Shown here: positions 42,709 to 58,807 of the stretch, in pieces | Position numbering within the stretch: position 1 is the stretch's first letter | How the letters are laid out: every line of letters starts with the position of its first letter | Virus record (IMG/VR): IMGVR_UViG_3300020060_000011 | Coordinates: 375 to 64,374 of that record | Length of the DNA: 64,000 nt | Direction: 5' to 3' (one strand) | Origin: a virus | Position numbers and translations under genes: made by a program | Notes under the pieces: model-generated | Database searches by the model: none | The model's input: the letters and a program-made list of their open reading frames with translations, nothing else | What the model was told of the DNA's origin: nothing

Positions 42709-42879
42709 ATGATCAAGACAATCAAATTCAATCTGCGCGTCCCCAGCGCGCTGTACCAACAAGCACGAACAATCGCGCAGAAAAAAGGCATGAGTGTAAA
42801 TGCGCTCTTCGTGCTAGCCATACGCATTTTCATTAGTGGACATAACAACTCCACGCCAGATTCACAAAAAACCAAATAG
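42709..42879 (+). CDS. Arc/RHH-family DNA-binding protein
   Basis: MIKTIKFNLRVPSALYQQARTIAQKKGMSVNALFVLAI; GGAG RBS; not in the ORF track. Confidence 0.75.
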   Translation: MIKTIKFNLRVPSALYQQARTIAQKKGMSVNALFVLAIRIFISGHNNSTPDSQKTK

Positions 42880-43030
42880 AGTTCCGGCTGCTGTTGGGGG
42901 AACGAAGTTCCGCGCATGGATGTGTACGGACTACGTAAAGCATCACGTCTGTAACCACCGGGGACTTCTTCCATTGGCCAACGAGCGCCGAGCTGCGAAC
43001 GTTTGTTCCGCACACGAGGCTCGCCGTGTC

Positions 43031-43966
43031 GTGTCGATCAAACAGCGCCGCGACAGCGGTGCATGGGAAGTCACTGTCTGCCTACCCAACAGACCCATCG
43101 TCCGCAAAAGCAACAAGGACTGGACGAAGCGCGACGCTCAACGCGTCGAGTACGAACTGCTGAATCCGCAAGCCAGTCAAGGCCATACCCTCGATCAAGC
43201 CATCGAGAAATGGAAAGCTGAACACGTCGTCCACATGAAGAGCGCCAAGGCTACGCTCGAGCACGCACACAAGCTCCAGGAATACACCGCCGGCCGCGCG
43301 CTGGACGACGCACCCGCAGTCGGAGAGCTCATCAAGCAGAAGATGGCGAAGCTGAAGCCCGCGACCATCAACCGTCGCTTGGCGATCCTGCGCCAGATCT
43401 GCTACATGGCCCACGACCGGTGGCACCCGGCCTGGCTCGAGCACCCGCTCGGCCAGAAGATCAAGCTCCTGCCGGAGAACAACGAACGACATTTCTACCT
43501 AACCCGCGCACAGGTCGAGGCTTTAGCTTTCGCCTGCGTCAATCGCGAGGCCGCGGACCTGATCGTGTTCGCGGCGTTCACCGGCCTGCGTAAGTCTGAG
43601 ATGTTCCGCATGACGGCCGACCATGTGGTCAACAACGCGCTCCTGCTTAACGCCAATACAAAGAACGGACGTCCCAGCATGTTGCCGCTGCATCCGCGCG
43701 CGCTGCATATCGCACTGAAGCTCCCACTCACCATCACGCCGAAGATCCTACGCGACGAATGGACCGCAGTGCGCAAGACGTGCAACCTCAAGCACATCCA
43801 CTGGCACGACCTGCGCCACACCTACGCTTCGTGGCTCGTGCAGGCCGGTGTATCCTTACTCGAGGTCAAGGAGCTGATGCGCCACGCAACGATCCATATG
43901 ACCATGCGCTACGCACACCTGGCGCCGGACAACCTGCGCGCCGCGGTGGCTAAACTGGCGAATTAG
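43031..43966 (+). CDS. int: tyrosine recombinase / integrase
   Basis: TGLRKSE, TKNG, HDLRHTYASWL, LMRH...TMRYAHL catalytic set; GTG start chosen within track ORF 42836..43966. Confidence 0.92.
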   Translation: MSIKQRRDSGAWEVTVCLPNRPIVRKSNKDWTKRDAQRVEYELLNPQASQGHTLDQAIEKWKAEHVVHMKSAKATLEHAHKLQEYTAGRALDDAPAVGELIKQKMAKLKPATINRRLAILRQICYMAHDRWHPAWLEHPLGQKIKLLPENNERHFYLTRAQVEALAFACVNREAADLIVFAAFTGLRKSEMFRMTADHVVNNALLLNANTKNGRPSMLPLHPRALHIALKLPLTITPKILRDEWTAVRKTCNLKHIHWHDLRHTYASWLVQAGVSLLEVKELMRHATIHMTMRYAHLAPDNLRAAVAKLAN

Positions 43967-45850: not shown

Positions 45851-48259
45851 GTGAGACTCGTGCTCCTGGGTGCTGCGCTACCGCTTACAAAAACCATCGC
45901 GTGCCGTGACGGCGCGTATGCGGTAGCACCTTACCCGCACGTCTCGAAGCTGACCAGCTTCCACGAGACGACGGATTCTCTGGCAGGTTTCCAATCGCTT
46001 CTTTCGAAGCACGCGGCCGAGGGGCATTGCCTCTTCAACGGCCAGCTGCAGCAACCGCTCGCCAACGAATCGCGCGCGGGCAAGACGCTCAAAGGCGCAC
46101 CGCGCGAGTGGGTGGTCTTCGACTTCGACAAGGTCGAGGCCAAGGACCACGCCGAGGTCGTACAGCGCTACCTCCCGGCCGAGTGCCAGGGCGTGAGCTA
46201 CGTCGCGCAGCATTCCGCGTCGATGTTCAAACCCGGCACCGCCGCGTGGTCCGGCCACGTGTTCATGTTGTTGAAAGAGCCGTCAACGGAACTGCAGCTG
46301 CGCGAGTGGTTCGAGGCTCTGAATTTCACGATCCCATCACTCAGCGAGGGCTTGGCGCTGACGGACTCCGGTCTCGGCCTGCACTGGCCCCTCGACCGCA
46401 GTGCCGCCTACGACTCGAAGCTGATCTACATCGCTCCGCCGCGCATGCACGGCTTCACGCCGGCCATCGATCCGAAGCAGGCGATCCAGCTGGTCAAGAA
46501 GAAACAGTCGCACCTGAAGCTGCCGGCGTTCAAGCCGGTGACCAAGCGCGAGATCGAAGACCGCATCAACGACCTGCGCAAGGACGCCGGGCTCGAAGCC
46601 AAAGACTTCCGCTCCCGTCCGTTCGAGGACGGCGAGATCCTGATCGAAGCCGAGGAGGGCGTCATCACCGGTGTCCGTCCGATGGGCGAGCACTACATCA
46701 AGTTCAACCTGAACGGTGGCGACTCACTCGGCTACTGGATTGACCTGCGCAATCCCTCGGTCATCAAGAACTTCAAGGGCGAGCCGTGGCTCTTGACCCA
46801 GCAGGTCGATGAGAAGTTCTACAAGCAGCTAAGTAAAACCGCCTCACGCGTCATCTCGCGTCCGCCGATCGGCGAGGGCACCGAGGTGCTGGCGTTCTAC
46901 GCCACGAACCAGAACTCGCGCATCAAGATCGGCCTCTTCGAGCCCGTCGTCTCGAAACTGACGATCAACACCTCGACCGAGACCGCAGCGCGCTCCTGGC
47001 TCGCCGAGTTCGGTGTCATCGGCGGCGGCTTCCTGCCGCACGTCGACATCACCTTCGATCCGACCTCCGACATCCAGTACGTGCCGAACGGCACGTTCCT
47101 CAACACCTTCGCGCCGACGCCGTATATGAAAGCCGACAAGACCAGCGACACGCCGTCGACGCTGCAAGAGCTGCCGGCGGTGATCAACAAGCTCCTGTTC
47201 TCCGTGCTCGGCAATCCGACACCGGAGGTGTACACGCACTTCATCAACTGGCTCGCGTTCATTTTCCAGACGCGCCAGAAGAGCGAAACGGCGTGGGTAA
47301 TTTCGGGAAGAACTGGAACTGGGAAGGGCACGTTCGTCAAGCACGTGCTGCGCCCGCTATTCGGCACCGACGTCGTCAAGAACGTGCAGTACACGGCGCT
47401 GAACAACGAGTTCAACGGGTACCTCGAGTCCTCGATCTTCGTCGTCTTCGAAGAGTGCGATACCAAGGCGGTCGCGAACGGCGCGGAATTGAGCGCGAAG
47501 CTCAACCACTACGTGACCGACTCGCCGATCCAGATCCGGCGCATGCAGACCGACCACTACGAAACGCCGAACTACAGCAATTTCTTCTTCTTCACCAACA
47601 AGCACACGCCGGTCGAGATCACCAAGGACAACCGCCGCTACAACATCGCTGAGCGGCAGGAACAACAGATCTTTTTCACGCCGAACGAGATCTTGTCGCT
47701 GCAACGCGGCACCGAGCTCGACCGCTTCGCCGACGTGCTCAAGCGTTGGCCGGTAAACGAAGCCGCCGTGCGCCGGATCATCACGACGCAGGCGAGCGAG
47801 GACATGCACGAGGCGACGACCTCGATCAACCAGCAGATTGCAGACGCCATCGGCCAAGGCAACCTGCAGTTCTTCCTCGATCGCATTCCGTCGAACGAAG
47901 AGGCGAGCGCGGACTTCTTCAACCGGTTCAATCCGCTCGGGCTCTTGAAGCCGAAGCTCGATGCGTACATCGGCGCGGCCAGCAAGGGCGAGTCGATGCT
48001 GCTGAAGGAAGACACGGACCTCTTCGTCCTCTTCCGCGCGCTGATTCCGGACCTTCGTTATTTCCAGGATTCGAAGACCTGGCGCCGGCGGCACTACAAG
48101 TCGCTCGGGCTTGATATCGACAAGAAGCACCGCGTGCCCGGCACGTGGGACAAGCAGGCGCGCGGCGTGCTGGTGCAGTGGAAATTGCCGGCTGGCGCGA
48201 GCGTACCGGACCCGACGGGGAAAGTCGTCGAGATGAAGAAACGGAGAAAAGCCCAATGA
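45851..48259 (+). CDS. primase(-polymerase) fused to SF3/DUF5906-type helicase
   Basis: N-terminal VFDFD and HVF motifs; Walker A GRTGTGKGT, Walker B VFEE, DNRRYNI. Confidence 0.85.
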   Translation: MRLVLLGAALPLTKTIACRDGAYAVAPYPHVSKLTSFHETTDSLAGFQSLLSKHAAEGHCLFNGQLQQPLANESRAGKTLKGAPREWVVFDFDKVEAKDHAEVVQRYLPAECQGVSYVAQHSASMFKPGTAAWSGHVFMLLKEPSTELQLREWFEALNFTIPSLSEGLALTDSGLGLHWPLDRSAAYDSKLIYIAPPRMHGFTPAIDPKQAIQLVKKKQSHLKLPAFKPVTKREIEDRINDLRKDAGLEAKDFRSRPFEDGEILIEAEEGVITGVRPMGEHYIKFNLNGGDSLGYWIDLRNPSVIKNFKGEPWLLTQQVDEKFYKQLSKTASRVISRPPIGEGTEVLAFYATNQNSRIKIGLFEPVVSKLTINTSTETAARSWLAEFGVIGGGFLPHVDITFDPTSDIQYVPNGTFLNTFAPTPYMKADKTSDTPSTLQELPAVINKLLFSVLGNPTPEVYTHFINWLAFIFQTRQKSETAWVISGRTGTGKGTFVKHVLRPLFGTDVVKNVQYTALNNEFNGYLESSIFVVFEECDTKAVANGAELSAKLNHYVTDSPIQIRRMQTDHYETPNYSNFFFFTNKHTPVEITKDNRRYNIAERQEQQIFFTPNEILSLQRGTELDRFADVLKRWPVNEAAVRRIITTQASEDMHEATTSINQQIADAIGQGNLQFFLDRIPSNEEASADFFNRFNPLGLLKPKLDAYIGAASKGESMLLKEDTDLFVLFRALIPDLRYFQDSKTWRRRHYKSLGLDIDKKHRVPGTWDKQARGVLVQWKLPAGASVPDPTGKVVEMKKRRKAQ

Positions 48260-48782: not shown

Positions 48783-48940
48783 TTCTGGATCGCCTTGCTC
48801 AAGCGGTTCGTGAAGGGCTTATTCGTCCTGCGTTCGATAGCAACGCTGGCACCGACGTAAATGCCATCGTTGTCGTGAGCAGCGAAAACTTCAAAGCTCT
48901 CCAGCAAAACGAAGATCCGAACTGGGAGCCGATCGAATGA
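48779..48940 (+). CDS. small hypothetical protein
   Basis: GTGA/ATGA coupling; 53 aa. Confidence 0.5.
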   Translation: MILDRLAQAVREGLIRPAFDSNAGTDVNAIVVVSSENFKALQQNEDPNWEPIE

Positions 48941-49644
48941 CCAACCTCGCCCTCCCCAACTGGTCCTTCTCCAAGCTGGTCAAGTACGAAGCATGCCCGC
49001 TCCAGTTCAAGTTCTCGGCGATCGACCGCATCCCCGAGCCGCCACGTCCGGCGGACAACCCGCTCGAGCGCGGCAACCGTGTGCACGATCACCTCGAGCG
49101 TTTCGTCAAGGGGGAAGTGCCGTCGCTGTCGGGCTGCGAAGCGAAAGCGATCACCAAGTTCGAGCCGCTGCTGCAGCACGCACGCGATCTCTACGCCGAC
49201 GGCATGGCCTCGGTCGAAGAGAACTGGCTGTTCGACGAGAACTGGTCCGAGTGCAATCGCGACAACGTGTGGCTGTGGTCGAAGCTGGATTTGAACGTGC
49301 GCGACCAGGTCAATCCAGTAACGATCGCGGTCGACTATAAAACGGGCAAAAGCGCGTACAAGGCCGTCGATCATATCCAGCAGATGCAGCTCTACGCCGC
49401 TGCGGCTGCGATCCGCCAGGAATGGGCGGAGACCGTCATCGTCGAATTGTTTTACGTCGACGAAGGCCACGTAAAGCAGGTCGTTTACTCGCGCGAAGAA
49501 GCATTGCGCTTCGTCGGCCGCTTCGACATGCGCGCAAAACGCATTTACGCCGACCGTCATTTTCGACCCAATCCGAACAAGGTGACGTGTAGGTACTGCG
49601 CTTACTCACCTAGGGGCAATGGTCATTGCCCAGTGGGCGTGTAG
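48937..49644 (+). CDS. PD-(D/E)XK Cas4/RecB-like exonuclease with Fe-S-type cysteines
   Basis: WSFSKL..YEACP, GNRVH, KLD...VDYKTG, QMQLYA, C.YC.Y...CP. Confidence 0.88.
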   Translation: MTNLALPNWSFSKLVKYEACPLQFKFSAIDRIPEPPRPADNPLERGNRVHDHLERFVKGEVPSLSGCEAKAITKFEPLLQHARDLYADGMASVEENWLFDENWSECNRDNVWLWSKLDLNVRDQVNPVTIAVDYKTGKSAYKAVDHIQQMQLYAAAAAIRQEWAETVIVELFYVDEGHVKQVVYSREEALRFVGRFDMRAKRIYADRHFRPNPNKVTCRYCAYSPRGNGHCPVGV

Positions 49645-49646
49645 CT

Positions 49647-49802
49647 GTGTTTATTTTCCCTTGCCCAATTGATGCGCCCGAAGGTTACGACGGTCCACTA
49701 ATTCCCGAGCGTCGTGGCAACGAGGTTCCTTACTACGTCCTCGTTCCCGCCGACCCAGAAAAGTTCGGCGTGCTCGTAGTCGACACAGGAGAACCATCAT
49801 GA
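49647..49802 (+). CDS. small hypothetical protein (MFIFPCPIDAPEG...)
   Basis: 51-aa ORF filling the gap, ATGA overlap with the next gene. Confidence 0.4.
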   Translation: MFIFPCPIDAPEGYDGPLIPERRGNEVPYYVLVPADPEKFGVLVVDTGEPS

Positions 49803-50023
49803 AACGCAATTCCCTAGCTGTTGCCGCTCTCGCGGCCATCGCCGGTGTCGCCGGTATTGGCTCGCTGCCCGTCGATCATAGATCGATAGCGCGCGATGCG
49901 TTCTACCGCCGCAATCTGCGCGGCCCGAACCGTGGCCTGAATCATCAGCGTCGCCCGGCGAAGGTGCGTGCTCAGCGCCGTACGGCGCGCAAGGCGCGGA
50001 AGCTCAACGCACGAGGTTGGTGA
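49799..50023 (+). CDS. small Arg-rich protein with hydrophobic N-terminus
   Basis: GGAGAACCATC RBS. Confidence 0.6.
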   Translation: MKRNSLAVAALAAIAGVAGIGSLPVDHRSIARDAFYRRNLRGPNRGLNHQRRPAKVRAQRRTARKARKLNARGW

Positions 50024-50024
50024 T

Positions 50025-50177
50025 ATGTCGGAAACGTCCCGCGACGTATTCACTGTGCGTTTACCGCTCGATCTAGCTGAGCGGATAAAAGCTGCAGCGG
50101 AGAAGGACTACGTGAGCATGAACGCGATTATCACGTTGGCGCTTCGCGCGCATTTTTACAACGAGGCACCGAAATGA
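50025..50177 (+). CDS. Arc/RHH-family DNA-binding protein
   Basis: FTVRLPLDLAERIKAAAEKDYVSMNAIITLAL. Confidence 0.8.
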   Translation: MSETSRDVFTVRLPLDLAERIKAAAEKDYVSMNAIITLALRAHFYNEAPK

Positions 50178-50386
50178 CCCAGCAGCAGATCCGCATCGAC
50201 GGCGAGATCGACGCGTGCAAGTGCGGGCGTCAGCCCAAGCACTACCACGAGCGCGGCCGTAACCGGCACTTCCTCGAATGTTCGCCGTGCAACGTGCGCA
50301 CGGCGAAGTGCGACACGTTTCAGGAAGCGGTCGAGGCATGGGAAGGGCAGAAGACCGAGATTTTCGTTTCGCGGAGGGCGGCATGA
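50174..50386 (+). CDS. Lar-like (restriction alleviation family) zinc-ribbon protein
   Basis: CKCG..P....LECSPC......EAVEAWE. Confidence 0.6.
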   Translation: MTQQQIRIDGEIDACKCGRQPKHYHERGRNRHFLECSPCNVRTAKCDTFQEAVEAWEGQKTEIFVSRRAA

Positions 50387-50754
50387 ATACGAAACGTCTG
50401 AAAATCATCGCGCAATGGCTCGAAGCTGGCGCACCGCATAAAGGCGACGTTGCTGGTTTCGATATGCGCCATGTGCAGACCGAAGCGGCGTGCGGAACAT
50501 TGTGCTGCATCGCAGGTGCAGCGATTCATTTCTTCGGGACCAGAGAAGAGAGGACGAGCGTTTTCTCAGACCCTGCGGGCCCTCTTTTAGGGCTCGACCA
50601 GGAAGACGCCGATGAACTTTTCTGTCCTGTCGGCTACGACACCGTCGATGACGGTATGGACGGGCGCTATGGCGCTGCGCACGCAGCACGCTGCATACGC
50701 AATTTGATCACGACGGGTGTCGTCGACTGGCGCGGTACGGAGCTTGCCGAATGA
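50383..50754 (+). CDS. hypothetical protein (CGT.CCIAG family)
   Basis: FDM......CGTLCCIAGAA...LGL..EDA..LF pattern common in phage. Confidence 0.7.
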   Translation: MNTKRLKIIAQWLEAGAPHKGDVAGFDMRHVQTEAACGTLCCIAGAAIHFFGTREERTSVFSDPAGPLLGLDQEDADELFCPVGYDTVDDGMDGRYGAAHAARCIRNLITTGVVDWRGTELAE

Positions 50755-50975
50755 ACACCTACGCCATCGCCTACGGCGTCATCTCTGCGCTCGTCATCGT
50801 CGCTCTCTGGGTTGAGCTGTGGCGCCTGCAGCGTGACTACGACCGCGCGCTGAAGCTCGCTGATGTGTGGGAAACCGAGGCGCGGCTGCTGCTCGCCCGG
50901 CATGAGCCGGGCACGTCGATCGACTACGAGCTGGCGCGCGTGCGCGTGACGCTGGATATGGAAAACGCTGCGTGA
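50751..50975 (+). CDS. small N-terminal TM protein
   Basis: 74 aa, coupled. Confidence 0.6.
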   Translation: MNTYAIAYGVISALVIVALWVELWRLQRDYDRALKLADVWETEARLLLARHEPGTSIDYELARVRVTLDMENAA

Positions 50976-51177
50976 AGCTCACCGCCGACCAGCGTGAGTC
51001 GTTGTACGAACTGACGTTCTGCACCGGACGTCCGACCGTCGACACCGCGCGGCTCGTCGAGCTCGGCCTTGTCGAACAGGGTAAAGGGCGCTTCGGCTTC
51101 TACGTCCGCATCACGGCGAAGGGCAGGGCGCTTACGAATACGTGGTCTTCAACGAACTCGGACATGACGTCCGATAG
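50972..51177 (+). CDS. small winged-helix-like protein with apparent -1 frameshift near 51132
   Basis: LVELGLVE...YVRITAKGRAL; good codon usage continues in the -1 frame (YEYVVFNELGHDVR*). Confidence 0.5.
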
Positions 51178-51650
51178 GGGCGATAGGGCTGCCTCCGGAG
51201 TGCTCGCCGCCGCAAAGGGCGAGTCTATTTCTACGCCGGTGGCACGCGCGCCGCACCCGTCTTTTCCCCCTCCCGTCGGGAATGTTAGCGGCGTGTCATC
51301 GGCTCCAAACACCTCCGATAGCGGCCTCGGAGTGGCTGGTAACAGCCGATGCGTTTCACGAGGCGCGGTGCCTCGTAGAGGCCGCGCCGCCGCGATCCAA
51401 GCGAAGCCGTCGCCACCGCGCGACGATGCGCAACGCCGCCACCAGGCTCCCAGCGGTATCGCTGCAAGTGGGAGCGTCACTTACCCCGATCGAAGCCGCC
51501 GCTGTGGCAACAGCCTGATCCCCCCGGCTTCGACGACTCCGCTGCGCTCGGCAGCGATCTGTCGTGAGACATCAAATGCGAGTAACGCCGCACCGAGCCC
51601 TCTTTCTCCCAACGCTGTGCGCGTCGTACTCGGTACGCGCTGCGTTTTCT
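51177..51650 (+). ncRNA. candidate large structured non-coding RNA
   Basis: about 10 nested helices, GNRA loops, a 5'/3' closing stem and a terminator-like end. Confidence 0.5.
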
Positions 51651-51677
51651 ACCCTCTTGGCATGTTCGAGACCCTAC

Positions 51678-53093
51678 ATGGCACGAAGCAGCGCTGCTAC
51701 ACCGCTCACCGGTTCTACCGTACCTACGCCTTGGCCGCATCAGACAAAGTCGATATCGTTTTTTAAGACGCGGCCGTGCGGTTTCGATTTCAGCTCACCT
51801 GGAACCGGCAAGACGCGAGCGCAGATCGAAATCTACGCGCAACGCAAGCCGCGCGGCCGGTGCCTCGTGGTCTGCCCGAAGACGCTGATGCTGAGCGCGT
51901 GGGGGCTCGACATCGAGCGCTTCGCGCCGGAGCTGACGTTCTCGATCGCAAGTGCAGAACAGCGTGAGCAAGCGTTCACGATCAGCACCGATGTCGTGAT
52001 TCTCAACACCGACGGTGTGCGCTGGCTGGCCGACAAGAAGCACCCGAAACGGATGGCGCTGTTGAAAGGCTTCGATCATTTGATCGTTGATGAATCGACC
52101 GCCTACAAAGAACCGAACTCGCAGCGATCGAAAGCGATGGTCAAGGTGTCGAGGTGCTTCACGCATCGCTACCTCATGACCGGCACGCCGAATCCGAACA
52201 GCGTAACGGAGCTATGGAACCAGGCGTTCATCGTCGACGGCGGTAAGCGCCTCGGCGAGTCGTACTACAAGTTCCGCAACGCAGCGCAAGTCCCGACGCA
52301 AATAGGTCCGGGCACACAGCATCTTCGCTGGGACGACAAGCCCGGCATCGCGCCGGTCGTCGATGAGCTGATCCGCGACATAACTATACGGCACGCGTTC
52401 GAGGACGTGATGACGCACGTCCCTGCGAACTTTCGCGAGACCAAGGCGTTCACGCTCAACAAGAAAACCAAGGCGCTCTACGATCAGATGGAAGCCTCGG
52501 CGATCATCGAGCTCGGCGAGAAGGTCATCAGCGCCGTACACGCCGCGTCGATCCGCACAAAGATTTTACAAATTGCGAGTGGCGCATTATACACAGGTGC
52601 AGAAGACGGCGGTTACGAAGTCGTCGACCGACAACGTTACGAGCTGATCGCTGAGATCGTTGCCGAACGCGCGCACTCGTTGGTGTTCTTCAACTGGCGC
52701 CATCAGCGCGACGAGCTAGTAACCGAGTTCAAGAAAGCCGGGATCACCTACGCGGTGATCGACGGCTCAGTCACGGCACACGGCGCGCGCGAAGCCGTCG
52801 TTGCCGACTACCAGGCTGGCAAGTACCAAACGCTGCTGCTGCATCCGCGGACTGGTGCGCACGGACTGACGCTAACGTGCGGCACGACGACGATCATCGC
52901 GTCGCCGATCTACGAGGCAGATCTGTTGCAGCAGGCGATCGCGCGGATACACCGCGGCGGTCAGACCAAAGTAACCAACACGATTCTCGTTCGCGCCGAG
53001 GGCACGGTCGAGGAGCTGGTGTACGACAAGCTCTTCGGCAAAGAAGCACGGATGGGCGATTTGCTCGGACTGCTCAAAGCGAGGAAGAAATGA
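51678..53093 (+). CDS. SNF2-family (SF2) helicase
   Basis: PWPHQ, SPGTGKT, LIVDEST, LMTGTP, HGLTLT, QAIARIHRGGQ. Confidence 0.92.
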   Translation: MARSSAATPLTGSTVPTPWPHQTKSISFFKTRPCGFDFSSPGTGKTRAQIEIYAQRKPRGRCLVVCPKTLMLSAWGLDIERFAPELTFSIASAEQREQAFTISTDVVILNTDGVRWLADKKHPKRMALLKGFDHLIVDESTAYKEPNSQRSKAMVKVSRCFTHRYLMTGTPNPNSVTELWNQAFIVDGGKRLGESYYKFRNAAQVPTQIGPGTQHLRWDDKPGIAPVVDELIRDITIRHAFEDVMTHVPANFRETKAFTLNKKTKALYDQMEASAIIELGEKVISAVHAASIRTKILQIASGALYTGAEDGGYEVVDRQRYELIAEIVAERAHSLVFFNWRHQRDELVTEFKKAGITYAVIDGSVTAHGAREAVVADYQAGKYQTLLLHPRTGAHGLTLTCGTTTIIASPIYEADLLQQAIARIHRGGQTKVTNTILVRAEGTVEELVYDKLFGKEARMGDLLGLLKARKK

Positions 53094-53422
53094 AGCTCTA
53101 TCGCTACGACGATCGTATCTACGCATGCATCGTCGACGCCGAGCGAGAACTTTGGGGTACGACGACACCGAAGCTCGTGCTTTCAGAGTTCGAAGTTCTA
53201 AAGCGCACTCGATGCGGCGCGTGGATCGTCGACGCTATCGGGCATCGCCGCTTCGTCAACCTCGAAGCTAGCAAGCGGTATGCGTGCCCATCAGCAGAGT
53301 CGGCGATGGAGTCCTTCGTAATGCGCAAACGCCGGCAAATTAGAATTCTTAGAGCGAAGTTGGTGCGCGCCGAGCAAGTAATGGCGCTAACGCAGAACAT
53401 CCACAAGGTGCTCATAGCGTGA
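53090..53422 (+). CDS. hypothetical protein
   Basis: 110 aa, ATGA coupling. Confidence 0.65.
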
Positions 53423-53459
53423 ACTTGTTGCGGCTACTAACGACAACCCGGAGAGGGAA

Positions 53460-54137
53460 ATGAAATTCGAAATTAAGAATCGCGGGACGGGCGAGATCCT
53501 GTTCGTTTGTGAGATGACCGCAGAAGTCGCCGGCCGGAGCTATGCATTTCAACTTGGCTTTGCTGTAAAGCAAGCTGTCCTAAGTTCCGCGAACCTCCGC
53601 GGCGCGAACCTCCGCGGCGCGGACCTCGGCGGCGCGAACCTCCGCAGCGCGAACCTCCGCAGCGCGAACCTCCGCGGCGCGGACCTCGGCGGCGCGGACC
53701 TCGGCGGCGCGGACCTCGGCGGCGCGAACCTCGGCGGCGCGAACCTCGGCGGCGCGGACCTCGGCGGCGCGAACCTCCGCAGCGCGAACCTCGGCGGCGC
53801 GCTGAATAGTGAATTAGCGGTTGCGATGACTCGTATTCTTCCGGAAGGTGAACTGATCGGCTGGAAGAAGTGCAAAGACGACGTCATCGTCAAGTTGCGC
53901 ATTCCGGCCGAAGCGAAGCGGTCGTCCGCATTCGGTCGTAAATGCCGCGCCGAGTACGTCGATGTGCTCGAAGTTTTCGGCACCGAAATGGGCGTCACGC
54001 AGGTGCATGGCCCGCGTACAGAGTATCGCGCTGGTGAACGCGTGGTACCCGATTCGTTCGACGATAATTTTCAGGACGAGTGCTCGCACGGTATCCACTT
54101 CTTCATCACGCGCGCCGAGGCCGAGGCGTACGACTAG
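53460..54137 (+). CDS. pentapeptide-repeat protein with DUF5758-like C-terminus
   Basis: A(N/D)L(R/G)(G/S) repeats; IGWKKC...KCRA...CSHGIHFF. Confidence 0.9.
53587..53790 (+). repeat. 15-bp coding tandem repeat (GCG(A/G)ACCTC(C/G)GC(G/A)GC)
   Basis: encodes the pentapeptide repeats. Confidence 0.9.
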
Positions 54138-56715: not shown

Positions 56716-56882
56716 GCGAAGACGCGCCTGTGTCGCTAACGAGAGACGAAGTCATCAACTGCATGACTTGCGTAGGGCGAGTTACAAAGTGGTTGAAAGA
56801 GGATAGCAACCCGGATGCCGAGGTAATCGGCCGGTTGACGACGTTGTTGGAGAAGCTGATCACGATGAGAGACGCCGAGTGA
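56712..56882 (+). CDS. small hypothetical protein
   Basis: 56 aa, coupled on both sides. Confidence 0.55.
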   Translation: MSEDAPVSLTRDEVINCMTCVGRVTKWLKEDSNPDAEVIGRLTTLLEKLITMRDAE

Positions 56883-58807
56883 ACGATCTTCTCACCCGCC
56901 TCAACCTCGACGGTATCGTCGGCCTAGATTACGAAACGTTTTGGGCGAAGGACTACACGCTCAGCCAGATGGCGACGACGGAGTACGTCACCGATCCGAG
57001 GTTCAAGATGCACATGTGCTCGGTGCAGTGGCACACCGAGAAGCGTGCGCACGTGCTGAGTCCTGCGGAGCTCGCCTACTGGTGCAAGCACGTGAACTGG
57101 AAACGGACCGGGATGCTCGCGCATCACACGGCATTCGATGCGTTCATCCTGTCGCACCACCTGAAGGTCAAGCCGGCGTTCTACTTCGACACGCTGTCGA
57201 TGGGGCGCCCGATCATGCCAATCACCGTCGGCGGGTCGCTGCAACGGCTCTGTCAGGCGTTCAAGCTCGCCGGCAAGAAAGGCGGCGACGTGCTCGTCGA
57301 CACGCAGGGCAAGGAGACGCTGTCGCAGCCTGAGTACCGGCGCATGGCGAAGTACGCCGGCAACGACATCGAGCAGACCTGGCTCCTGTTCCGCAAGCTC
57401 CTGCCATACATCCCGTTCGACGAGCTGCGTCTCATCGACCTTACGATCAAGATGTACGCGCAGCCGACGCTGCTGATCGACAAGGAAGCGATCGACCGCG
57501 TACTGGTCGCCGACATTGCGCACAAGGACGCGCTGATCAAGGCGCTGAAAGTGCGCAAGACGCAGCTCACCAGCAAAGACCAGTTCGCCGGGCTCCTGCG
57601 CGCCGCCGGCGTCGAGCCACCGACGAAGGTCAGCGCAAAGAAGTCCGCGAAAGCCGGCTACGACGTCGAAGTGCTGGCAATGTCGAAGCAGGACCAAGAG
57701 TTCAAGGATCTGATCGGACATCCGAAGAAACGCGTGCGCCAGCTCATCGAAGCGCGTTTCGCCGTGTCGTCGAACCAGATGGAGTCGCGCTGCACACGGC
57801 TCAGCGGACGCGCGCACCTCGGCGCGCAGCCGGTGTATCTGAATTACTACGGCGCCAAGACCGGCCGCTGGAGCGGTGGCGACGAAGTCAATTTCCAGAA
57901 CCTGTCCAGCAAGCGCAAGGAAGGCGGCGCGGAACTGCGCGCATCCGTGTACGCACCGGCAGGGTACAAGCTGATCATCGCTGACCTCGGTCAGATCGAA
58001 GCGCGCGTCAACTGCTGGTTCTCGAAGCAAGACGACGTAGTCGAAGCGTTCCGCGCGTTCGACAACGGCACCGGCCCCGACATCTACAAGCACGTCGCGG
58101 CGACGTCGATTTACAACAAACCGATTGCGCAGATTACGACGGCCGAAAGGTTCATTGGGAAGACATGCGAACTCGCCCTCGGATTTCAGGCTGGGTGGCA
58201 GCGTTTCGTCGCGATGCTCCGTATCGGCGCGCTTGGCCCGCCGGTCGAGATCACCGACTCGCTGGGCAAGGACGTACACGCCGCGTGGCGTTCGTCGCGC
58301 CCGTTCGTCGTCGGCAACTGGAAAAAGACCAACAACCTGGTCAAGTCGGCGTTCCTCGGCAAGCAGACGCTAGAGGACGGCTGTGTGTCGTACGAAGGCG
58401 CCGAAGGCAAGGGCTGGATGCACCTGCCCGGCGGCGCCGCGATCCGTTACGACGACATCCAGGTTGATGAGGACGGCATGTCGTACATCAGCCGGTTTCG
58501 CTACAACCGAACCAAGGAACCGACGATCGAGCGCACGCGCCTGTACGGCGGCATCCTCGTCGAGAACCGCACGCAGGCGCTCGCGCGCAGCATCATCGCC
58601 GAGCACATGCTCCATATCGTCGACGAGTCGCGTGGCAAGGTGCGTATTGCGATGTCGACGCACGATGAAATCGTCGGCGTCGTGCCCGATGCCTACGCGG
58701 AGCGCGCGCTGGCGATATTCAACGACGTCATGACGACGCCGCCGGTCTGGGCGCCGACGTTGCCGCTCGCCGTCGAGGCGCACATTTCTGCGAGGTATGA
58801 CAAGTGA
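56879..58807 (+). CDS. family A DNA polymerase with 3'-5' exonuclease
   Basis: ExoI LDYET; motif A ADLGQIEAR, motif B ER..GK..ELALGF, motif C THDEIV. Confidence 0.93.
   Translation: MNDLLTRLNLDGIVGLDYETFWAKDYTLSQMATTEYVTDPRFKMHMCSVQWHTEKRAHVLSPAELAYWCKHVNWKRTGMLAHHTAFDAFILSHHLKVKPAFYFDTLSMGRPIMPITVGGSLQRLCQAFKLAGKKGGDVLVDTQGKETLSQPEYRRMAKYAGNDIEQTWLLFRKLLPYIPFDELRLIDLTIKMYAQPTLLIDKEAIDRVLVADIAHKDALIKALKVRKTQLTSKDQFAGLLRAAGVEPPTKVSAKKSAKAGYDVEVLAMSKQDQEFKDLIGHPKKRVRQLIEARFAVSSNQMESRCTRLSGRAHLGAQPVYLNYYGAKTGRWSGGDEVNFQNLSSKRKEGGAELRASVYAPAGYKLIIADLGQIEARVNCWFSKQDDVVEAFRAFDNGTGPDIYKHVAATSIYNKPIAQITTAERFIGKTCELALGFQAGWQRFVAMLRIGALGPPVEITDSLGKDVHAAWRSSRPFVVGNWKKTNNLVKSAFLGKQTLEDGCVSYEGAEGKGWMHLPGGAAIRYDDIQVDEDGMSYISRFRYNRTKEPTIERTRLYGGILVENRTQALARSIIAEHMLHIVDESRGKVRIAMSTHDEIVGVVPDAYAERALAIFNDVMTTPPVWAPTLPLAVEAHISARYDK

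Follow-up and report, generated by a model that had tools for sequence, protein, structure and literature searches.

A stretch of phage DNA at 51177-51650 raised the question of whether it is structured RNA or unusual protein-coding sequence. It lies in the 64,000-nt piece of DNA analysed here (the window), which makes up most of a 67.6-kb IMG/VR virus record. The original prediction placed a discrete catalytic or scaffold ncRNA there, in a non-coding gap without a credible CDS. We found that the region is not ORF-free. It lies inside ORF 50972..51766, a real gene of the phage's replication module, and encodes the linker in the middle of the product (Table 1), which corrects a tempting misreading: the high-GC, codon-atypical, hairpin-rich stretch is translated. 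The same nucleotides seem to carry RNA elements in addition.

Table 1. Positions of the gene, its protein domains, its downstream neighbour and the elements considered within the linker-coding segment (window coordinates).
Feature	Position	Strand	Evidence
Gene for 264-aa protein	50972..51766	+	ORF listing, homologues, profile search, conserved position
N-terminal winged-helix domain, aa 1-62, GRFGxYVRITAKGRAL	50972..51157	+	AF2, Foldseek
Linker-coding segment, aa 63-212, low-complexity tether with local conserved hairpins	51158..51607	+	AF2, open frame
Conserved block 1, peptide RGxRAAS..AAKGE	51163..51223	+	84-91% nucleotide identity to L008 and L012
Proposed 'multibranch domain', variable linker sequence	51228..51381	+	33-58% identity to L008
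Hairpin ACGAGGC/GCCTCGT under peptide SRGAVPR (helix 5)	51358..51376	+	z -3.9 for 31-nt piece
Segment ~80% DNA-identical to relatives, translated in a different frame (compensated frameshift in linker)	51432..51505	+	pairwise DNA alignments
Hairpin iii (helices 8 and 9)	51445..51476	+	covariance model, rare codons, compensated pairs
Hairpin TCGAAGCCG/CGGCUUCGA (helix 10)	51490..51533 (arms 51490-98/51525-33)	+	z -3.9
Hairpin CGCUGC/GCAGCG under peptide P-A-G-S-A-A (helix 12)	51540..51556	+	z -2.75
C-terminal small beta domain and stop	51608..51766	+	AF2, 33-sequence alignment
SNF2-family helicase gene	51678..53093	+	Pfam SNF2-rel_dom 4.5e-19, Helicase_C 8.5e-11

The ORF starts with a GTG that is part of a GTGA, in which the preceding ORF 50751..50975 ends. 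A full-length metagenomic counterpart, the 299-aa protein P0002, matched with an E value of 8.6e-35 at 100% coverage. A profile built from three sequences recovered at least 68 cluster representatives from metagenomic protein clusters at E<=1e-3, and 42 at E<=1e-10. Both end domains of the protein were present in about half of the 68 representatives and the C-terminal PNAxR motif in 35, while most representatives without both end domains matched the N-terminal part only.

Gene order around the homologues (labelled here by locus number) is constant, running DUF5906 ... PDDEXK_1, small ORF, wHTH/linker gene, SNF2, and in all homologue loci the wHTH/linker gene lies directly upstream of the SNF2 helicase gene. 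The neighbours form a replication module (DUF5906 primase-helicase-like, PDDEXK, SNF2 and PolA). Locus L002, which was retrieved via its SNF2 gene and not via the ORF itself, carries the same ORF; L007, also retrieved via SNF2, has an ORF with a different N-terminus and a similar linker and C-terminus. The first 89 nt of the SNF2 gene (MARSS..) are shared, in a different frame, with the end of the gene upstream, and both L008 and L002 keep the MAR(S/A)SS start. Relative to L008, dN/dS was 0.40 for the wHTH domain, 0.55 for the linker, 0.26 for the part of the C-terminal domain free of SNF2 overlap and 0.17 for SNF2. Searches of Pfam and PHROGs with eight family members gave no match, nor did blastn against 50,697 phage records. 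An SNF2-anchored scan of species-representative genomes yielded 46 loci, none with the wHTH/linker gene upstream, and related-locus searches with the family alignments yielded either no usable stretch or no relatives. The ORF belongs to an uncharacterised protein family that is tightly linked to phage SNF2 helicases.

The 264-aa protein is built of an N-terminal wHTH domain, ~150 disordered A/P/S/R-rich residues and a small C-terminal beta domain. AF2 modelled residues 1-60 with pLDDT values of 94-98 and a secondary-structure order of H-H-E-E-H. The top Foldseek matches of this domain were all MarR-type wHTH regulators, at a probability of 1.0 but E values of 0.03-0.2, and on these scores residues 1-62 may share the fold of the MarR-type proteins in PDB entries 3lfk, 4eju and 1jgs. 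In contrast to those regulators, the protein lacks the dimerisation-helix region and a Pfam match, and instead possesses a long disordered tail followed by a novel C-terminal domain. The latter was also modelled with high scores (pLDDT 93-96 for residues 211-250 of the full model) and follows the pattern PNAVRV..G.K.TYYP......G.K.RV.T.NK.YR.YP.AAS, in which P, N, A, R and T are invariant across the 33-sequence alignment. We considered whether its conservation is an artefact of the overlapping SNF2 start; this was rejected, since the genes of L015, L016 and L017 have no such overlap and the domain is still conserved. Fold searches with the C-terminal domain gave no match (VIA Z<=2.5, Foldseek E>1). 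What emerges is a protein family that neither Pfam nor PHROGs match and whose C-terminal domain matched none of the folds searched.

Between these domains, AF2 gave a pLDDT of ~50 for residues 65-210 and no secondary structure. The ORF does turn S/P/R/A-rich after about residue 55, in line with the original observation, and it loses its codon periodicity: GC1/2/3 of the linker is.67/.70/.63, compared with a GC3 of.75-.84 in neighbouring genes, and no GC3 periodicity is left. Among family linkers A+P+S+R account for 50% of residues. Counted from ~16 residues past the GRFG motif to PNAVR, the stretch spans 64-187 aa in family proteins and 40-229 aa in loci with DNA, so that linker length ranges about five-fold among relatives. 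The claim that this segment holds no credible CDS did not survive comparison with the homologues. They conserve the frame of the 264-aa protein, an outcome that the original prediction itself had named as grounds for refutation. In each homologue whose DNA was analysed the ORF runs on through the linker. Across the 11 loci counted in all six frames, the gene frame contained 0 stops in 1464 linker codons and was the sole stop-free frame, the other five containing 28, 44, 23, 7 and 45. The alignment shows no conserved start codon before the C-terminal domain, so ribosomes must pass through the linker to get there. Along the linker there are peptide islands, SRGxxPR for example, that stay in frame while their third bases change synonymously. 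Folded conserved domains on both sides, a single frame and a variable low-complexity join (AF2, alignments) together identify a disordered-linker protein gene.

Within this open frame, the local reading frame has drifted. Pairwise alignments of 51432..51505 to relatives require short indels that are not multiples of 3, and the family motif PPxxPL(K/Q)xGA appears as LPAVSLQVGA in the window's +1 frame. One relative, L093, has no C-terminal domain and has kept the linker motifs, which argues that the linker or its RNA has a value of its own.

A discrete large ncRNA at this position is refuted by the translated gene, by pairing at chance level, by an ordinary folding score, by the lack of an Rfam family and by the failure of its closing and multibranch helices to be conserved. 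The complementary strings on which the prediction was built do occur at the positions given for them, with the qualification that TTTCTACG/CGTAGAGG is not a perfect reverse complement. Their number, however, equals chance. Exact inverted k-mers numbered 66, 20, 7 and 1 for k=6, 7, 8 and 9, against 58, 17, 4.8 and 1.4 in dinucleotide shuffles, and the fraction of shuffles at least as high was.23-.60. Folding of the 474 nt gave z scores of -2.3 to -2.45 (-2.45 for the + and -2.01 for the - strand when the two were compared), which is ordinary for this genome: 21 control windows averaged -1.07 (sd 1.38), and five of them were as low or lower. When positions 49000-54000 were scanned against Rfam, no family reached its gathering threshold. 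At E<=10 the only nearby match of cmscan was an L31 leader on the - strand, which we rejected because its 28.2 bits fall short of the gathering score of 33.2, its strand is the wrong one and an L31 context is lacking.

Comparison with relatives dismantled the proposed architecture. The helix said to join the 5' and 3' ends is not kept. Both the closure and the inner helices of the multibranch domain are broken, and part of this domain is deleted in close relatives: 51253-51328 is missing from L012, while in L013 51148-51252 is gone and the alignment consists mostly of gaps from there to ~51300. Of the 14 listed helices, numbers 2, 3, 4, 6, 7, 11 and 13 do not form or have been lost in L008, L012, L013 and L002, and the RNAalifold covariation term was an unfavourable +10.8. 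The final hairpin with its T-run fared no better, as the T-run consists of V-F-Y codons and is not conserved. A scan for promoters and terminators found none inside the gene and none bracketing 51177-51650. One could still suppose that a 430-470 nt catalytic or scaffold RNA sits between two genes and that high GC content produced the long ORF by accident, given the z score of -2.45, the missing codon periodicity and the tRNA genes that some relatives carry at the same spot. Set against this supposition are a frame open over ~1460 linker codons while all others contain stops, no conserved start before the C-terminal domain, a multibranch region deletable in close relatives, a linker that varies ~five-fold in length, the empty Rfam search and the lack of bracketing signals, and we give it almost no chance of being right. 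What does stand of the proposed RNA structure is more local, namely that three or four small hairpins (helices 5, 8/9 and 10) are nucleotide-conserved.

The most informative of these is hairpin iii. It consists of an outer stem G-CCCC(C)/GGGG-C around CCGCUG(A/C)AAG(C/U)GG and underlies the family motif TPPxxPLKAGA. Covariance model R1 detected it once in the window (55.6 bits, E 2.8e-12), with the runner-up at 11.5 bits. Ten loci including the window have one copy each; it is missing in L012, L017 and L018 and so is not essential to the family. Codon choice within it is skewed. At its paired or loop positions, Gly is encoded by the rare codon GGG in 7/7 cases (usage.11-.17), Pro by CCC in 8/10 (usage.14-.25), and Lys/Gln by AAA/CAA in 9/10. 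Third positions vary where they are unpaired and are fixed in the stems or the conserved loop. In the two cases without CCC, a CCU is paired with GAG, the codon that replaces Gly by Glu; the CCU-GAG pairing of the Gly-to-Glu variant was predicted before the DNA of L065 was read, and was then found. The window itself has a U-A at a different pair. Compensated pairs thus occur in the window, L014 and L065, giving three compensated cells at two pairs, and wherever just one side of the inner stem has changed, a C facing a G has become U. With ten related sequences, in which most stem pairs never vary, 56-62 of 500 shuffles reached the observed covariation score.

The hairpin is also retained where its peptide is not. 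The window reads it outside the usual family frame, as QAPSGIAASGS, although the block is ~80% identical in nucleotides; L093 reads it in the same alternative frame as the window, and L066 reads the 3' arm in yet another. On viral contigs, a degenerate DNA pattern of hairpin iii matched twice, by chance. Its matches on metagenome contigs comprised 120 in unrelated sequence, which we took as the null, and two family members. Both free pairs were Watson-Crick in 12/120 of the unrelated matches, compared with every family copy that matches the pattern. The inner hairpin presumably resembles boxB, and we therefore considered a nut-like site of boxA plus boxB. This was rejected, as the lambdoid boxA consensus CGCUCUUA was not found between 48460 and 53348 even with one mismatch.

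Similar behaviour was seen at other places in the linker. In block 1, L008 and L012 have the helix CTCGCC/GGCGAG (51203-08/51218-23) unchanged, whereas L013 does not have it. The central Arg of its RGxRAAS peptide is encoded by the rare codon AGG in 7/7 loci (usage.04 in ordinary genes and.11 in linkers), and in most of the seven this codon lies in or beside a hairpin loop. Under the SRGAAPR peptide, the third base of Arg pairs with the third base of Pro as A-U, G.U, U-A, U-A, G-C and G-C in six loci. Both positions are synonymous, and four pair types give a standard pair in 6/6 loci; by permutation count on these few, related sequences, all-standard pairing results from 3 of 90 letter arrangements. 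Helix 10 keeps 8/9 pairs in L012 and 7/9 in L008, is absent in L002, and retains 8/9 pairs in L013 with one C-G to U-A change. The equivalent of helix 12 in relatives is shifted in register; as read from the alignment, L008 differs from L012 and L013 by four synonymous changes, with two pairs kept. All these hairpins were chosen after looking and the sequences are related, so probabilities calculated by hand for them are optimistic.

We then compared the folding of whole linkers with that of shuffled sequences. For the first 11 linkers the mean z was -2.18 against dinucleotide shuffles, -2.25 against codon permutations and -2.26 against synonymous-codon shuffles that keep the protein. With the last method 14 linkers ranged from -1.1 to -3.9 (mean about -2.2), the three out-of-sample linkers scoring -1.9, -3.4 and -1.1. 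Under the same synonymous shuffling, eight gene segments of the window averaged -0.31, and 13 segments from homologue loci averaged -1.39 (sd.85), some of them reaching -2.5 to -2.7. Linkers therefore fold better than synonymous shuffles and, on average, than ordinary genes, but the distributions overlap, and the homologue-locus controls put the excess at only ~1 SD over other coding segments. The pairing excess was nearly strand-symmetric and stronger when G-U pairs were left out, which DNA palindromes would fit as well.

Taken together, we consider the segment to be probably of dual use: translated linker code that also hosts RNA elements, as opposed to a large ncRNA standing on its own. Its main rival is an ordinary disordered linker and nothing more, in which the islands would be short peptide motifs, the hairpins by-products and the nested tRNAs of relatives opportunistic insertions at a tolerant site. 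Hairpins could arise from the complementarity of CCN/GCN with NGG/NGC codons, that is of Pro/Ala with Gly/Arg, or from template-switch mutation at quasi-palindromes, which perfects inverted repeats in weakly constrained DNA. Such an origin would be consistent with the chance-level inverted-repeat counts, with the Watson-Crick, strand-symmetric pairing excess, with control z values that partly overlap those of linkers and with the non-significant shuffle-based covariation (56-62/500). The motifs moreover recur at the protein level in 16-20 of the 68 proteins, and many short indels and compensated frameshifts are what unconstrained, slippage-prone DNA would display. However, palindrome correction gives no account of rare codons that are fixed in loops as well (AGG, AAA/CAA). 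Nor would by-products be expected to survive as a nucleotide block despite a frame-shifted peptide in three lineages, to have third positions that vary if unpaired and are fixed if paired or in the conserved loop, or to change on one side of the inner stem exclusively by C-to-U opposite G. On this balance we regard a by-product origin as rather unlikely.

Alternatively, the inverted repeats might act as DNA, forming operator or origin sites bound by the protein's own wHTH domain. The precedent is lambda O, where ori lies inside gene O, part of which can be deleted in frame within ori while O stays active (PMC6022878). There too a cis-acting element occupies the flexible-linker code of a replication-module DNA-binding protein, and the architecture is alike: DNA is bound at the N-terminal end and a partner at the C-terminal end, with a flexible linker between the two domains, the partner of our C-terminal domain being presumed. 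Besides this architecture and the replication-module context, the Watson-Crick, strand-symmetric signal would suit DNA sites, and symmetric changes in both arms would also be expected of a dimer-bound palindrome. Unlike ori-lambda, however, the linker DNA shows no iterons, no tandem repeats, no repeat families apart from chance matches in two copies and no AT-rich stretch (GC.64-.68), and the evidence favours RNA pairing, in which G.U pairs are frequent. These three differences make a lambda-O-like origin in the linker less likely. Furthermore, the hairpin sequences all differ and so are not repeated sites for one protein, and hairpin iii is absent from some family members. No similarity to lambda O was detected by Pfam, PHROGs or phage tblastn-level searches. 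We judge sites acting as DNA to be improbable.

Returning to translated code that hosts RNA elements, a working model can be outlined. Judging from the architecture and the gene linkage, the winged helix would bind DNA and the C-terminal domain would contact another protein, for which the SNF2 helicase, encoded by the overlapping gene, is the likeliest candidate, with the linker peptide serving as a presumably sequence-tolerant tether. The sense RNA over this tolerant peptide code would carry short stem-loops kept by selection on nucleotides. Three observations point to such selection: rare codons are fixed at paired or loop positions, synonymous and compensated changes keep the pairing while G.U is tolerated, and a block is retained where the local reading frame differs. 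Most likely they would act in cis on the early polycistronic transcript, as signals for its processing, its stability or the binding of a protein. A stronger version, which is possible but which we hold with some doubt, is that the linker is a dedicated RNA-hosting segment. Selection would then act mainly on the RNA, comprising a stem-loop module and, in some lineages, tRNA cargo, with the peptide as a passenger that need only stay open and flexible. On this version it would make sense that phages differ in the frame in which they read one and the same nucleotide block.

Cis-acting RNA stem-loops that overlap coding sequence and reveal themselves by suppressed synonymous variation are a general phenomenon (reviewed in PMC3575835). 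Conserved third positions, rare codons and pairing-preserving changes in short stems are shared with such cases. In contrast to them, the stems described here lie in the code of a disordered linker whose frame drifts. If the nucleotide-level signal holds, the family adds a case of disordered-linker codons reused for RNA elements. It would then bear on how RNA and protein information are overlaid in compact phage genomes, and on the way in which low-complexity linkers ought to be handled by gene callers and RNA finders.

The same logic of reusing linker codons is seen in the in-frame nested tRNAs of relatives. A tRNA-Thr(UGU) lies at L015:997-1072 (64 bits) and a tRNA-Gly(UCC) at L067:891-966 (70 bits), both identified by Rfam and ARAGORN. 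They are complete, lie in the sense direction, start at codon position 1 and encode CCA, and the ORF stays open through them; both end 3-4 codons before PNAVRV. No tRNA was found in the window's own linker, and across nine homologue loci these two tRNAs were the only Rfam matches. A known parallel is the tRNA-Sec gene (selC) nested in the selB ORF of Alphaproteobacteria (Mukai 2021, PMC8124441). There a structured RNA gene lies sense and in frame in a tolerant part of an ORF, as it does in L015 and L067. A translation typical of a tRNA is also seen in P0009, a third protein of the family. The window differs from the selC arrangement in having short hairpins only, and its host gene is of another, uncharacterised family with a wHTH domain.

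Between window positions 51432 and 51505, within the code for the disordered linker, the DNA alignment showed approximately 80% identity to the homologue loci L013 and L008, with a different reading frame. The alignments required short indels with lengths that are not multiples of three. The family peptide motif PPxxPL(K/Q)xGA, normally encoded over the conserved stem-loop hairpin iii, was found in the window's +1 frame (ORF 51282..51518) and not in the frame of the gene. This segment represents a compensated frameshift.

The longer linker of a further homologue locus, L015, contains two matches to the hairpin iii covariance model. The second, weaker one (L015:657-708; 24.3 bits, E 7e-4) suggests an internal duplication in this linker. 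Complete tRNA genes with an encoded CCA are nested in frame inside the linker ORFs of L015 and L067 (table), their 3′ ends lying 3-4 codons upstream of the C-terminal domain. The peptide signature of a nested tRNA in P0009, another family protein, points to a third case.

At its 3′ end the gene is overlapped over its last 89 nt (51678-51766) by the start of the SNF2 helicase (MARSS...), which is read in another frame. Here the third positions of the upstream frame were the most conserved (identity.76), and dN/dS in that frame was ∼1. The family member at L093:233-1018 has the wHTH and linker blocks but lacks the C-terminal domain, and its stop coincides with the SNF2 gene start. Several database matches confined to the N-terminal part (for example P0042 and P0043) resemble this form.

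When the linker at window 51158-51607 was counted together with its homologues, 11 loci in all, one antisense frame was nearly open, with 7 stops in 1464 codons. On the minus strand (51370-51422), the Rfam model of the L31 ribosomal-protein leader scored 28.2 bits, below its gathering threshold of 33.2, and the match was judged a chance GC-rich hairpin.

The phage is temperate and carries its own replication module. A local GC peak of.71 was observed at the pentapeptide-repeat-like gene.

Genes in the surrounding window and tRNA genes nested in homologous linkers
Feature	Location	Remark
Tyrosine integrase	window 42836-43966	
DUF5906 protein	window 45851-48259	802 aa, primase-helicase-like
PD-(D/E)XK nuclease	window 48937-49644	
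Pentapeptide-repeat-like protein	window 53460-54137	225 aa, just 3′ of helicase gene
Family A DNA polymerase	window 56879-58807	
tRNA-Thr(UGU)	L015:997-1072	
tRNA-Gly(UCC)	L067:891-966
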